Shown here: positions 3,931 to 42,576 of the stretch, in pieces
Layout of the letters: each line of letters begins with the position of its first letter
Position numbering within the stretch: position 1 is the stretch's first letter
Assembly (NCBI GenBank): GCA_022813865.1
Contig: JALDZX010000006.1
Coordinates: 558,001-622,000, forward strand
Direction of reading: 5' to 3'
Source: Xylographa opegraphella
Lineage: Eukaryota
Length of the DNA: 64,000 bases
The notes under the pieces: model-generated
The model's database searches: none
What the model was told of the DNA's origin: nothing
The model's input: only the letters and a program-made list of their open reading frames with translations
Program-made: the position numbers and the translations under genes

Positions 3931-4796
3931 TAAATCCTCCCCGGCGCTGAAGTGTTGGTTGGCTACAGCGCAAATGATGTGAATGCAATTGGATCCTGGC
4001 ACACGATTACAGTAGTTCTAGTCCGTTCATTTAAAAAGAAATGTGTGAGGCTTCTTTGGATTTGATGCGGCTTCGACTTACATGGGAATCCCATTCGTGC
4101 CAAGTCGCTTCTGGAACGAATAGCTGTTGTGGTGCGTATCTAGTGATGCGAGAAACACCAGTGGCCAGGCTGGACAAGGGCCTCGTTCGGGATCTCGATA
4201 AGTCGACGGTGCAGGCGGGTCACACCAGATCTCAGCGGCGAGCGAGACGGCGTCCAACGAGGCACTCGTGGGCAGTCAGTGGTGGTTCAGTGGAGGTGGT
4301 GCCAGCTGTCGGATGCGTGGCGTCGAGGTGTGCCATCCGAAGAAGGCGGTGAGGCAGCCCGAGGAGTCATTATGGCTTTTTAGTTCTACGATTATCATGA
4401 CTTTTAATACGACGTAGGGTGGTATTGTTGTGGACGACAAGTACTGGCGGCCGTGTACGGAGCACGATACCTTCCCTTCCCCTCGCAAGCTTTGTATACA
4501 TGACCTAAAATCGCCCGTGCGTCCGGAGGTAGCTCTCCACGTATACGACGGACAAGTAGCTGCACGGCGGCGCACGAAAGGGCATGCACGCATCATGCAT
4601 GCCCACCGTCGGGGAAAGCCAGCCGTCCGAGCTCTCCGTGCCTGCTGCACGGCAACCCAAAAGGCGGAACCCAAAGCCTCGACGCGCTGGTGGTTGGGAA
4701 TTGCCCAATGAGGACGCCGTCGCAACACGCTCGTCATGGGCCCAATGGCAAGCAGTCGGCCGCTTCAGGTGTGCCACCCCTTCCTCCCTTCCGGGT

Positions 4797-37969: not shown

Positions 37970-38646
37970 TTCCTCTCATAATCCTCTGGGATACATCAAA
38001 CGGCCACAACTGCAGGATTTCAGGAATGGAACGGTGTACCACTGGGACGGTGTCTGGTCCGGCGTACAGCATAGCGAGGTCGCCGTGAACCACTGAAAGT
38101 CTCTGGCGGGTACCGGCTTGGAGAAGTCTGTTTGTTGCCATCGGCGTCACATCGGTTCAACATAGGTACCTCCTTTGGCGTCATCAGATGAAATGAAGCT
38201 TGTGAAACTATCCAACGTCATGTAAACTAGTCAATTGTACTACCACGACAAGTAAGAGCCTGTAGCCGTAAGAGGATCACAGTGATGAGCTGTCAACAAG
38301 TTCGCTGGGACGCCGACATCTGTGGGCTCTGTCCAGCCCTACCGCGCAAGCGCTGTGGATCACTTTCACATGGGCTTGGCTCGTCGCTTTTGGACTGTTC
38401 CCTTGAGGATCACATGCTCCGAAAAGCCCACCTCATGCTGGGCGGGCATTTGGCAGTCTTTAGCCTTATAGACGAATACTTGCAGTATACTTTACCCTCC
38501 ATTACTGGAAGAGCTCAATGTATAGTGGACAGGTCTTACTCTAGGCTGCCATTTGACTAGGTGGACCATTCTTCTCTCGTCCGCCGTCTCTGTTGAACAG
38601 GCATCCCACCCTACTCCACATCTTTTCTCTTGGAACCGCATTCATT

Positions 38647-39858
38647 ATGGGTGATAGCCTACCCCTCCTCCGCCCTTTACCGCAACGGGCCTTCCAAATC
38701 ACTCCCACCTCTACAGAACCGCCGTCGCCGCCAATGAAATCGACCGAGAATCATGACATATCATTCTTGGACGGCAAGTCATATGGCGGAGATGACATTA
38801 CTCCAAGCAGAACTCGCTCCATACTTAACCTGACATCTTCGACCCTATTTGGCATCTATTCGCCCCCAGAAAATGATGGGACTCGCTCAGGGTTCAACAC
38901 ACCATGGGGCACAGGAGCAATGACACCTGCAGGTCCGTATACTCCGAATCTTCAGCCAGCCGATGCGCAGAAACCGGCCATAGTCCGTGCACTCGAACGG
39001 GCCCAGTCAAGCAGTCCAGTCTCACATCATTCTGCTGGAGTTCTCGAGACTATCGTTTCGACCGCAGTGCGTATTGTGCTACTATTCGCATTTGGAGTGG
39101 CGTACGGTGTCATTGTGACACATCTACATGATAATCCACAGTTGGCGCCGGTGAAAGTTGGCGGCATCGAGCGGTACTCGTGGGCTTATTTGGTATTTTG
39201 GGGTGTGGCCGGAGTGGCATTGGGAAGCTTGCTACCGTGGGTCGATATTGTTTGGAAAGATGTGCTAGGGAATGGTCAAGAAGGCGAGAAGGACATACAC
39301 AAGCGGGGAGAGCCAGGGTCAAACGCGGCAGACGATCAACAAACTCAAGAGCCTGATGCCGGGTTTGGAAGCGGGCTAGGTGCTGATTGGCATCCAGTGG
39401 TGAGGAGTATTGGAGCCTTCATTGGCATAGCTTTTGCTATTGTAAGCGTTTTCCTTTTTCTGGTGTCGATGCGTCGCTAACAATGTAAATAGAGAAAGCT
39501 TCCCTGGCAATCGACATTACAGGTTTCAGTGACTTTGGCACTCGTCAACCCTGTGCTGTGGTATATCATCGACCGTTCACGACCCGGCTTTGTTCTGTCA
39601 GCAATTGTTGGTATCGCAGGCACTACTGTTTTAACAGCCATAAATCCTGAATTGGTTCCATCTCCAGCTATGCACTCGCCTCAAGCAGATGCTTCACATC
39701 CCGCTTACGGCAGCACAGAGATACCTTGGATTATCAGTCACGAAAGTATTGTCGTGTGGACCTGGGTTGCTAGTGTTCTATTCTGTAGCTGTGTGTGCTT
39801 TGGTAATATTGGGCGCAGACTGGCCTTGGCGTCACCTGGGTCAGGGAAAAGTGCTTAA
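38647..39858 (+). CDS. INSIG/Nsg-family ER membrane protein; intron approx. 39442-39491
   Basis: SRTRSILNLTSSTLFGIY, LFAFGVAYG, GSLLPWVD, VVRSIGAFIGIAFAIRKLPWQSTLQ, LVNPVLWYIIDRS, FGNIGRRL. Confidence 0.9.
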
Positions 39859-40105
39859 ATGCGACAACTGTCTACTCAATCAAGATACCCAACTCTGTTG
39901 CATTCGTCATAGGAGTCAAAACATCACATTATGCTTGCAAGTTGATATAAATTACATATTCAACCATGTATAGGGATCATAGGGTCTCATGAGCCATCAG
40001 TATGAACACATAGTATCAAACAAATTTCCCAACACCCATCACAGCTGCCAATTACGACGACGAGGTTCGCAAGCTGGAACACAACCAAACACCATATCAA
40101 CGAAC

Positions 40106-40335
40106 TCAGTTATGTACAGCTAATCATTGCGGCCCTCCCACGGATTTTTTTGGAATCCAAAAGAAAACACCGCACCCAAGATCGGCCGTCGTAGTATTAT
40201 TGCTCTCCATTCTCGTAGACGATTTCCGTAGGTCATGGAGATCAGACACCAGAGTGCAGACCGTCTCGCAGGAACGCTTTTATTGAGAATGTGGGTTTTT
40301 TGCGTTGTTCATAGGAGATGAAACGGAGAACGGAG
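40106..40335 (-). ncRNA. Candidate intron-encoded snoRNA-like RNA with multiple 18S rRNA-antisense segments
   Basis: Lies within GTATGT(40379)...TTCCAG(40074); 10-bp long-range stem, internal hairpin, H-box-like AGAGCA, terminal ACA and CUGA; four 10-14 nt matches to remembered 18S sequence. Confidence 0.5.
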
Positions 40336-40591
40336 CGAAGAGATTTTGATATACCGGTAGAAGACGCTAAGCTACATACGGAATAGTCGGTACCGGATTT
40401 TGATGGCACAATCCGGAGTTTATCAGATGCTTGTGTGTCAGAGAGCATGGAAGTTTCGCAATTGACATCGTGATCGAGCAAACCCACAACTGATGCGCAG
40501 AATCTGACATATTTCTACAAGTCTATGCTTCGAACACTAAAGTGTGCAATTGTCTTTTCAGATCTACTCTTGAGTACTACTTTTAATAAAC

Positions 40592-42576
40592 ATGGCATCC
40601 GACCAATCCCACAAGACAGGTGCGCCAATCCTAGCAGTGGTCACTAATGAACTGTCGCACCGACATGCTGACGCTACGGGGACAATGTAGCCATCCTGTC
40701 CGTTTATGATAAGACCGGACTCCTCGACCTTGCTAAAGGCCTTATACACCATAAGATCCGCCTTCTCGCATCTGGAGGCACCGCAAGGCTCATCCGCGAG
40801 GCCGGCTTTCAAGTGGAGTAGGTATATTTCTGCCATCCATAATTCACATTTAGCACAAGAGACAACCGACTGATTTACTTTTCATAGAGATGTCTCTGCG
40901 ATCACTCATGCCCCTGAGATGCTTTCGGGCCGGGTCAAGACACTTCACCCTGCAGTTCATGCTGGTATCCTGGCCCGTGATCTTGCCTCAGACGAGAAAG
41001 ACCTTGCGGAGCAGAATATAAACAAAGTCGATTATGTTGTGTGCAATCTCTACCCATTCAAGGATACTATAGCCAAAATCAACGTCACCATACCGGAGGC
41101 AGTCGAGGAAATAGACATTGGTGGAGTAACTCTTATTCGAGCGGCAGCGAAGAACCACGAACGGGTTACGATCTTGAGCGACCCTGAAGACTATGCTGGC
41201 TTTCTACAGGAACTCGGGAAAGGGGATGTAACAGAGAAGAGCAGGAAGCTATATGCACTGAAAGCATTTGAGCATACTGCAGACTATGATGCGACAATAT
41301 CGGATTTTTTTCGGAAAAAGTATGCGGGGAATGGCGAGCAGCAGATCTCCCTACGGTATGGAGCCAACCCACATCAAAAGCCTGCTTCGGCTTTTGTGAA
41401 AGGTGGCCGTTTACCATTCAAAGTTCTTAATGGAGCGCCAGGTTATATCAACCTACTGGATTCTTTGAATGCTTGGCCGCTGGTCAAAGAGTTAAAAGAA
41501 GCGCTAGGATTCCCAGCAGCGGCAAGCTTTAAGCATGTATCGCCAGCTGGTGCAGCGATTGGTGTACCCCTGAATGCGAAAGAGCGGAAAGTCTACATGG
41601 TGGACGACATTGAAGGGATCGAGAATTCAGGGTTAGCACAGGCATATGCTCGAGCAAGGGGTGCCGATAGAATGTCAAGCTTTGGAGATATAGTAGCGTT
41701 GTCGGACGAGGTTGACGTTCCCACTGCACGAATCATCTCAAAGGAGGTATCAGACGGCGTTATTGCACCTGGTTATACACAAGAGGCATTGGACATACTG
41801 TCGAAGAAAAAGGGCGGGAAGTATCTCGTATTACAAATGGATGAGACTTACGAACCACATGGAGTGGAAACCCGGACGGTTTATGGTATCAGCTTACGGC
41901 AGGGCCGAAATGATGTGAAGATCACGCCATCTGATACTTTCAGCGCAATCATTACTCCAAAGGACTCTAGTCCTTTACTGGAAGCATCGCTCAGAGATCT
42001 TACAGTGGCAACCATTGCTTTAAAATACACTCAATCGAATTCCGTCTGTTATGCCTTGAACGGTCAGGTAATTGGTCTCGGAGCTGGACAACAGTCCAGA
42101 ATTCATTGCACACGATTGGCCGGTGACAAGGCAGACAACTGGTGGATGCGTTTCCACGAGCGAGCGCTCGACCTCAAATGGAAGAAAGGCACGAAACGGC
42201 CTGACAAGAGCAACGCAATCGACATGCTCTGTAGTGGTCAAATTCCTAAAGAGGGTATCGAGAGAGAAGACTTTGAGAAGAACTTTGACGAAGTACCCAA
42301 GGACTTTTCAGAAGAGGAAAGAGAGGCCTGGCTGAAGAAGCTGAGTGAGGTCGCTGTCTCCAGCGATGCCTTTGTATGCTCCCAGCCAGACCCCAGCCAG
42401 CACACCGCTGACTTGAACAGTTCCCTTTCATCGACAATGTCTTCAGAGCTGCTCGCTCCGGAGTAAAGTACATAGCAGCGCCTACCGGTAGCCAGAATGA
42501 TCAGGCAGTCTTCGATACGGCCCAGATATTGGGTATTACGTTTGTGGAACAGAGTGTGCGGTTGTTCCATCACTAA
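40592..42576 (+). CDS. ADE17: Bifunctional AICAR transformylase/IMP cyclohydrolase (Ade16/17, PurH), three introns
   Basis: [85 protein letters not shown], ends RLFHH. Confidence 0.97.

Follow-up and report, generated by a model that had tools for sequence, protein, structure and literature searches.

The RNA Locus between INSIG and ADE17

The 64,000-nucleotide stretch of Xylographa opegraphella DNA analyzed here (the window; contig JALDZX010000006.1, positions 558,001–622,000) carries the plus-strand genes INSIG (38593–39858) and ADE17/AICARFT (40919–42466), and between them a structured RNA is encoded on the minus strand at about 40312–40110. This RNA is already known and catalogued as afu-182. 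A scan of the whole window against Rfam at gathering thresholds returned one match only, RF01496 (Afu_182), at 40314..40112 on the minus strand, with 119.9 bits (E = 2e-21; gathering score, 65 bits) over model positions 1–195 of 195. An earlier note, made from the letters of the window alone, had described an unannotated, intron-like snoRNA (small nucleolar RNA) here with four back-to-back segments antisense to 18S ribosomal RNA (rRNA). A structured snoRNA on the minus strand is borne out by the family match and by covariation. The two open reading frames that overlap it on that strand have no Pfam match. The RNA is nevertheless a member of a curated family, and its novelty falls with a strong Rfam match, an outcome that the note itself had named. 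We put at roughly 85% the probability that it is the orthologue of Aspergillus fumigatus afu-182 and a box H/ACA snoRNA homologous to yeast snR10.

In A. fumigatus, Afu-182 was mapped between Afu4g07680 and Afu4g07690; it was cloned 17 times with a cDNA of 219 nt, gave a Northern signal of ~300 nt, was found to be kept in A. niger, A. oryzae, and A. nidulans, and was left there without annotation, being listed as an "entirely novel ncRNA" (non-coding RNA) (Jochl 2008). The A. nidulans homologue lies 240 bp beyond the insA stop codon (Poudyal 2026), and the predicted 3′ end of the window RNA lies ~250 bp past the INSIG stop codon. Because the INSIG/ADE17 setting matches both published placements, the locus is at the afu-182 position, between insA/INSIG and the next gene and on the strand opposite to both. 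The full-length, above-threshold covariance-model match thus comes with the same position, orientation, and size class. The published afu-182 primer of A. fumigatus differs from the window RNA in the distal 5′ hairpin, so the window sequence is that of a relative and not of A. fumigatus itself. A further difference concerns class, as the published RNA is filed as a small RNA of unknown class or as a long non-coding RNA (lncRNA), whereas here it resolves as an H/ACA snoRNA.

For comparison, homologues were collected from metagenome contigs with a fetch pattern made of two consensus stretches lying outside the four 18S-complementary segments. The scan gave 86 loci, and a filter for exact CTTGGGTGC kept 51 of them, representing 32 distinct sequences (33 with the window). 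The 35 loci dropped have at least two mismatches to CTTGGGTGC, no internal CCATGA, and bacterial-looking sequence; no variant with one mismatch occurs among the 86, so the two groups separate cleanly and the filter cost no variant homologue. All 20 homologues tested exceed the Afu_182 gathering score (86–144 bits). Identity to the window RNA ranges from 52 to 74%, the closest orthologue standing at 74%. Among the 32 distinct orthologue loci, ADE17 lies upstream and divergent in 20, and INSIG lies downstream, converging on the 3′ end of the RNA, in 9. The snoRNA and ADE17 diverge from a short common spacer (40312–40919 in the window), and this link is kept more widely than the link to INSIG.

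Two Hairpins with H and ACA Boxes

As sequence and covariation show, the RNA folds as two hairpins with an AGA(NNA) H box between them and an ACA at its end (Table 1). A hand-written structure of this kind, comprising 29 pairs in four helices, was scored on the 33-sequence alignment, and 93.6% of its paired cells hold complementary bases, as against 81.0% in shuffled alignments and 34–51% when the partners are slid. Changes on both sides are seen in 18 of the 29 pairs, and none of 500 shuffles matches the observed value on any of these measures. RNAalifold finds the 3′ hairpin unaided (19 pairs, 13 of them with compensatory changes). On the MAFFT alignment it missed the 5′ hairpin, the variable region of which was misaligned, and this hairpin was for that reason assessed by anchor-based counts and by the hand-written structure. 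Two hairpins and a hinge supported by covariation, as expected of snR10 and of H/ACA RNAs, are accordingly what the alignment contains.

In the 5′ hairpin, changes on both sides are found in four of the six pairs of helix 1; the lower stem is replaced in orthologues by CACUCA/UGAGUG, CACUAA/UUAGUG, or CACUCG/CGAGUG, and the upper stem by UUUU/GAAA or UUUU/GAGA. One pair of helix 2 is C-G in 17 sequences and U-A in 12. Above the upper stem come an internal loop with CCAUGA and then a hypervariable distal stem-loop, and folds of the individual sequences give the same layout in most members. In the 3′ hairpin, lower and upper stems both covary around the invariant strands UUGGGUG and CAAU. An ACA (32 sequences) or AUA (one sequence) follows exactly 14 nt downstream of the guide strand in all 33, a spacing that is independent of the way the set was built, being part of neither the fetch pattern nor the filter. 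In the window, the box thus falls within the 14–16 nt from the pocket expected of an H/ACA RNA and 3 nt from the predicted 3′ end. The apex of this hairpin has an insertion specific to the window at 40141–40166 on the minus strand (UUGGAUUCC A-run AAUCC) that forms a small hairpin of its own and appears as a 9-nt insert in the Rfam alignment.

Ahead of the 5′ hairpin runs a leader that is predicted to be single-stranded. Its segment AACGCAAA also opens the yeast snR10 consensus, its invariance in our own set being given by construction. A single-stranded leader with AACGCAAA, conserved between the snR10 consensus of yeast and the fungi compared here, is not usual among H/ACA snoRNAs; no convincing partner for it was found in the rRNAs.

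Table 1. Positions of the predicted snoRNA, its parts, and the 18S-complementary segments in the window
Feature	Position	Strand	Basis or remark
Predicted mature H/ACA snoRNA, afu-182 orthologue, snR10-like	40110..40312	-	~203 nt; RF01496 match and sub-threshold RF01258 match
Predicted snoRNA ends: 5′ AUGAACAACG, 3′ ACA + 3 nt	40110..40312	-	Placed by family conservation
5′ leader AUGAACAACGCAAA, single-stranded	40299..40312	-	Upper-case in both Rfam consensus lines
5′ hairpin	40208..40291	-	Covariation, anchor-based counts, single-sequence folds
5′ hairpin, lower stem CAUUCU/AGAAUG	40291-40286 / 40213-40208	-	Covariation
5′ hairpin, internal loop strands AAAAGCG / AUCGUC	40281-40275 / 40223-40218	-	Conserved AAAAGC, AUCGUC
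5′ hairpin, upper stem UUCC/GGAA	40274-40271 / 40227-40224	-	Covariation; variable distal stem-loop beyond
CCAUGAC, counterpart of the yeast CCAUGAA element	40232..40238	-	CCATGA exact at the homologous place in 25/33
H box AGAGCA in hinge	40201..40206	-	AGA invariant in 33/33
3′ hairpin with predicted pseudouridylation pocket	40116..40189	-	RNAalifold covariation; helices 3 and 4 93–98% paired
3′ hairpin, guide strands UUGGGUG / CAAU	40179-40173 / 40129-40126	-	Invariant strands
ACA box	40113..40115	-	14 nt past guide strand
Promoter-like elements	40342..40370	-	TATATCAAAATC at 40353-40342 (~-41); TTAGCGTC at 40370-40363
Four 18S-complementary blocks together	40186..40251	-	Window species only, among sequences examined
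Block 1	40251-40240	-	12 bp, 2 G-U; 18S 996-1007
Block 2	40233-40221	-	13 bp, 1 G-U; 18S 1767-1779
Block 3	40209-40196	-	14 bp, 1 G-U; 18S 1556-1569
Block 4	40195-40186	-	10 bp; 18S 1005-1014

The features listed in the earlier note lie where it had placed them on the minus strand, and two of them, AGAGCA (40206–40201) and the ACA (40115–40113), coincide with the real H and ACA boxes. The others have a different standing. The 10-bp pairing of CTCCGTTCTC (40335–40326) with GAGAATGGAG (40214–40205), one pair of which is G-U, exists in the window but draws on the pyrimidine tract that precedes the conserved 5′ end; covariation does not support it, and nine contiguous pairs are retained in just one of 32 orthologues. 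Likewise, CGGCC (40188–40184) and GGCCG (40134–40130) are present as read but are not a covariation-supported pairing. The sequences AUGAUUA (within 40127–40121), taken to resemble a C′ box, and CUGA (40109–40106) are also present as letters, and on them one could build a box C/D or mixed-type guide, for instance one of the acetylation type directed at the CCG of helix 45, which block 2 spans. A box C/D family, sR12, is indeed the only match at the locus other than RF01258 under a permissive threshold, but at an E value of 7.2, which is the level of chance. AUGAUUA is made up of the invariant pseudouridine-guide strand and part of the covarying lower stem, and CUGA lies beyond the three nucleotides that follow the ACA, occurs in the window only, and is absent from the aligned tails of the 32 orthologues. 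No terminal stem joins a C box (RUGAUGA) to a D box (CUGA), and the CCG lies wholly within the pairing of block 2, which would leave no target base exposed. Membership of the box C/D class and the acetylation-guide reading were rejected, the conserved boxes being missing, and we give this explanation next to no credence.

Relationship to Yeast snR10 and Predicted Target

Below its gathering score of 70 bits, the Rfam model of snR10 (RF01258) also matches the window RNA, at 40306..40110 on the minus strand, over the full model with 37 bits (E = 1.5e-6 to 2.3e-6). The same model matches all 20 orthologues tested, again over its full length, with 30.7–61.4 bits (E = 2.4e-10 to 8.4e-3), and no third Rfam family occurs in the 40 matches that these 20 sequences gave at E ≤ 1. 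The consensus lines of Afu_182 and snR10 have in common AACGCAAA, CCAUGA, UGGAGA, GAUCUUGGGUGC, GCAAUGAU, and the ACA. In the consensus, the guide strands GAUCUUGGGUGC and GCAAUGAU are identical, and the window RNA further shares with yeast snR10 the two-hairpin H/ACA layout, CCAUGA in the 5′ hairpin, AACGCAAA at the 5′ end, and the ACA 14 nt past the guide. It differs in scoring below the curated threshold, in its length of ~203 nt as compared with a model of 245 positions, and in a 5′ hairpin that, the CCAUGA element aside, is built unlike that of yeast. On functional features, then, the RNA is very probably a homologue or orthologue of snR10 and not a curated member of RF01258.

The pocket strands UUGGGUG and CAAU imply the target ATTG-NN-CACCCA, which has one site in a 3585-nt stretch of fungal large-subunit (LSU) rRNA, where 0.005 would be expected by chance, and is absent from the 18S sequences (five complete, one partial) and the five rDNA loci searched. 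The first unpaired U of this target is position 2932 of 3401 in the Rfam LSU model and the third base of a 5-nt loop, UGUUC, closed by UGGAU/ACCCA. This is the geometry of the A-loop, and the model numbering is offset by nine from that of yeast, where the base is U2923; the first unpaired base in the pocket is thus the one at the yeast U2923 position. In yeast, the 3′ hairpin of snR10 guides formation of pseudouridine (Ψ) at this same third base of the A-loop, Ψ2923 in 25S rRNA, and a 7-nt processing element, CCAUGAA, is needed for normal processing of 18S rRNA (Liang 2010). The yeast element is overlapped by a complementarity to the 5′ external transcribed spacer (5′ETS). A counterpart of the element, CCAUGAC, is present in the window RNA; near variants of CCAUGA are found in most of the eight sequences that lack an exact copy, and in most single-sequence folds the motif lies distal to the upper stem.

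The 5′ hairpin was considered as a second Ψ pocket and rejected: no match to the target that AAAAGCR and AYCGUC imply, nor to a loosened form of its pattern, was found in the small-subunit (SSU) and LSU sequences and in three partial rDNA loci covering the upstream spacer, the SSU, the internal transcribed spacer/5.8S region, and the first part of the LSU. Conserved loop strands without a canonical Ψ target agree with yeast snR10, the 5′ hairpin of which is not a modification guide. Against rRNA, nothing better than G-U-rich matches of 8–9 bp, at the level of chance, was obtained with the leader, the CCAUGA region, or the loop strands.

Members of the snR10 family have been reported from the Pezizomycotina, and these reports, with which we compared the window RNA by description only, are consistent with it: Nc_HACA_13 of Neurospora crassa matches snR10 (Canzler 2018), and the 188-nt Trnc_1472 of Trichophyton rubrum has been assigned to RF01258 (T. 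rubrum table). Another H/ACA RNA that aids 18S maturation through base pairing is snR30/U17 (Liang 2010; Martin 2014), which leaves the 18S rRNA it pairs with unmodified. The window RNA differs from it in the canonical LSU Ψ pocket of its 3′ hairpin. In snR30, the loop of the 3′ hairpin carries two conserved motifs that pair with 18S rRNA. Membership of this family was rejected, as no snR30 match was obtained from Rfam at E ≤ 10 in 39950–40500.

Several points weigh against identification with snR10. The RF01258 threshold is missed by the window (37 versus 70 bits) and by the orthologues (at most 61.4 bits), and Rfam places Afu_182 outside the snR10 clan. A full ANANNA H box, with A as its sixth base, is found in just 16 of the 33 sequences, although AGAGCA of the window fits it. 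The processing element has C as its seventh base here and A in yeast, and eight of the 33 sequences have variants of CCAUGA itself. Invariance of ATGAACAACGCAAA and GCAATGA within the set is given by construction, as both belong to the fetch pattern, and that of CTTGGGTGC by the filter. The rRNA sequences used for comparison come from other fungi and not from the window organism. The ~300-nt Northern signal in A. fumigatus exceeds the ~203 nt predicted here, and the published azole and RTA1 phenotypes (Poudyal 2026) are not obviously predicted by an snR10 identity. Finally, pseudouridylation, association with Cbf5, Gar1, Nhp2, and Nop10, nucleolar location, and a role in A0–A2 processing are, for the window RNA, predictions from sequence.

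Upstream Region and the Question of an Intron

The interval had been taken for an intron bounded by GTATGT (40379–40374) and TTCCAG (40079–40074), both of which are present on the minus strand. A hexamer resembling a 5′ splice site (GT[AG][ATC]GT) within 110 nt upstream is found in only two of the 33 sequences, those of the window and of L102, and conserved flanking splice signals of the kind expected around an intron-encoded snoRNA were thus not seen on the 5′ side, the side compared in the orthologues. What is common instead are promoter-like elements. By eye, about nine of the closer orthologues (L054, L056, L057, L059, L061, L063, L071, L077, and L125) have in common, at about -41, a TATA-like (A/T)ATATCAAAATC and, at about -60, an element resembling TTAGC(C/G)GTAA; the more distant orthologues L055, L076, L110, L129, and L131 have CACGTG in their place. 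In nearly all sequences a pyrimidine tract runs up to the first base of the RNA. These elements look like a conserved snoRNA promoter placed back-to-back with ADE17, and they may well serve as one.

The upstream ADE17 exon in the window (~40690–40810, plus strand) has no in-frame ATG after the preceding stop codon in the stretch translated, and the start codon of ADE17 probably lies in a further small exon.

Complementarity to 18S rRNA

The earlier note had read the four segments as working parts of an atypical intron-encoded snoRNA or of a chaperone of 40S assembly, pairing with 18S rRNA at about 996–1014, 1556–1569, and 1767–1779. Real fungal 18S sequences for comparison were available from eukaryotic rDNA in prokaryotic assemblies, namely five complete sequences and a partial one of Aspergillus type (L006), in which the two A. 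fumigatus 18S primers given in a preprint both find a match; the numbering used here is that of L023. The pairings are real against these sequences, and all three mismatches become G-U pairs when the RNA is read from the minus strand. L006 offers partners to blocks 1, 3, and 4 as well but stops short of the end that block 2 would pair with; the block 2 target occurs in one of the five complete sequences. Blocks 1 and 4 together cover a continuous stretch of 19 nt of 18S rRNA, but they pair with this shared target in permuted order, and no known guide has such a pocket topology.

The assemblies from which the rDNA was taken deserve a remark. At least 49 contigs in prokaryotic assemblies (L001–L049) carry a eukaryotic 18S motif; L023, L025, and L039 belong to a 24-kb contig with fungal rDNA repeated in tandem, from a metagenome-assembled genome labelled Bryobacteraceae, and other such contigs are found in several Streptomyces, Nocardia, and Pseudonocardia isolates. 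They are probably eukaryotic contamination. The Afu_182 model gave no match in five of these assemblies.

Whether the density of 18S matches exceeds chance depends on how it is counted, and the claim that it does stands in part. Simply counting the duplexes that reach 10 bp and have no more than one G-U pair gives nothing remarkable (five observed, a number equalled by 48 of 500 dinucleotide shuffles). Their clustering is not: 48 of 70 nt are covered, more than in any of 3000 shuffles (which reach 45 at most), and a single shuffle in the 3000 has two duplexes of 13 bp or longer. In a scan of both strands of the whole window, the cluster is the top 70-nt stretch, and unrelated stretches follow with 43, 42, 41, 40, and 40 nt. 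Three stretches with a coverage of 41–43 nt, at 2507–2576 on the plus strand and at 4663–4594 and 41698–41629 on the minus strand, were taken as chance background. Once the search space is taken into account, the cluster ranks first in the window but is no clear outlier.

None of the four blocks is kept in any of the 32 orthologues. Around the first target zone (18S 994–1016), the longest orthologue duplex with at most one G-U pair has 8 bp, amid scattered short matches. In the second zone (1765–1781) it has 10 bp and is made by the stem and loop sequence TACGGAAATC, and in the third (1554–1571) it also has 10 bp but comes from another element, the Ψ-guide strand. The window alone has two duplexes of 12 bp or more; in one orthologue there is a single one, at an unrelated site. 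Each orthologue has 0–5 duplexes of at least 10 bp, which is about the number expected from shuffles. Measured against the window, column identity stands at 0.21 in block 1 and at 0.41 in block 4, the least conserved columns, as compared with 0.63 in the rest of the RNA. Block 1 falls in the hypervariable distal stem-loop of the 5′ hairpin, where gaps are many, and block 4 in the variable hinge. Most of block 3 is variable hinge as well, its conserved part being only UGGAGA, which belongs to the lower stem and the H box. Block 2 consists of the 3′ strand of the covarying upper stem together with the conserved loop strand AUCGUC. The Rfam consensus of Afu_182, which is drawn from Aspergilli, also mismatches the window at blocks 1, 3, and 4.

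Yeast snR10 itself has several segments complementary to pre-rRNA and has yielded hybrids with 18S rRNA in CLASH, in which crosslinked RNAs are ligated and then sequenced (Liang 2010; Martin 2014), which would favor several sites of pairing; yet only one of five complementary segments was reported to matter in yeast (Liang 2010). With the blocks absent from the orthologues, splice-like signals in two of 33 sequences, and unrelated stretches of the window close behind in coverage, we consider a multi-site, intron-encoded snoRNA or assembly chaperone very improbable. The blocks are located mostly where the RNA is free to vary from species to species. A coincidence peculiar to this sequence is the most likely explanation for them. 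There is a slender chance of a lineage-specific gain, in which the distal 5′ hairpin and the hinge would have acquired extra pairing to three regions of 18S rRNA. It is equally doubtful that the snoRNP (the snoRNA-protein particle) would then tether pre-40S particles or chaperone their folding beside its conserved role as guide for the A-loop. That such a gain has any standing follows from the distance of the nearest orthologue compared, which is only 74% identical, and from the rank of the cluster in the window taken with the several pre-rRNA contacts of yeast snR10. Of the link to the 40S subunit drawn in the earlier note, what survives is that the snR10 family takes part in 18S/40S maturation in yeast (Liang 2010; Martin 2014); the multi-site antisense pairing is not conserved.

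Proposed Mechanism

As an snR10 homologue, the RNA would be transcribed from its own promoter, divergent from ADE17; sequence and covariation show it folding into two hairpins with the H box between them and the ACA at the end. The internal loop of the 3′ hairpin would pair with the LSU rRNA segments that flank the third base of the A-loop (UG[U]UC), and the H/ACA pseudouridine synthase would convert this U, at the yeast U2923 position, to pseudouridine. The complementarity to the A-loop and the geometry of the pocket are observed in the sequences, and the modification is what they lead us to expect. The 5′ hairpin, which would guide no modification, carries the conserved CCAUGA element that serves 18S processing in yeast, a function proposed for the window RNA by homology.

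The Published Reading of afu-182 as an Azole-response RNA

Under the name afu-182 the RNA is currently treated as a lncRNA of the intergenic region beside insA with a modulating effect on the azole response (Poudyal 2026). It could accordingly be an lncRNA that regulates transcripts of the RTA1 family and others and has nothing to do with ribosomes, its H/ACA-like features being incidental or secondary. In A. fumigatus, a human pathogen, deletion and over-expression alter the response to azole below the minimal inhibitory concentration as well as RTA1-family transcripts, afu-182 levels drop on azole exposure, and deletion in A. nidulans has a related phenotype (Poudyal 2026); a preprint ties afu-182 to thermal adaptation (PMC13015456). 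Yet every conserved element is explained by H/ACA function, from the covarying hairpins to the unique rRNA site and the ACA at 14 nt, and a length of ~200 nt is at the lower bound of the lncRNA definition. Changes in the transcriptome can also follow secondarily from altered production or function of ribosomes. The afu-182 texts of 2026 never mention a snoRNA, the nucleolus, or the ribosome, so the snoRNA alternative was not considered there. We regard a purely regulatory lncRNA as very improbable.

A link between afu-182 and snR10 was not found in the full-text literature searched, electronic supplements of earlier surveys lying outside the search. In that literature, "afu-182" occurs together with "snoRNA" only in Jochl 2008, and no afu-182 paper is among those that contain "snR10" and "Aspergillus".

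The finding of multi-site antisense pairing to 18S rRNA does not stand as it was posed, and it is the identity of the RNA that is of wider interest: the azole-response "lncRNA" afu-182 appears to be snR10. Were afu-182 indeed snR10, the ribosome would offer the simplest reading of its phenotypes, including by way of the efficiency of 40S production, RF01496 would seem to have its place within the snR10 clan, and the cold sensitivity of yeast lacking snR10 (Liang 2010) would fit the link of afu-182 to temperature naturally. An identity with snR10 would thereby give the phenotypes of afu-182 a concrete mechanism.

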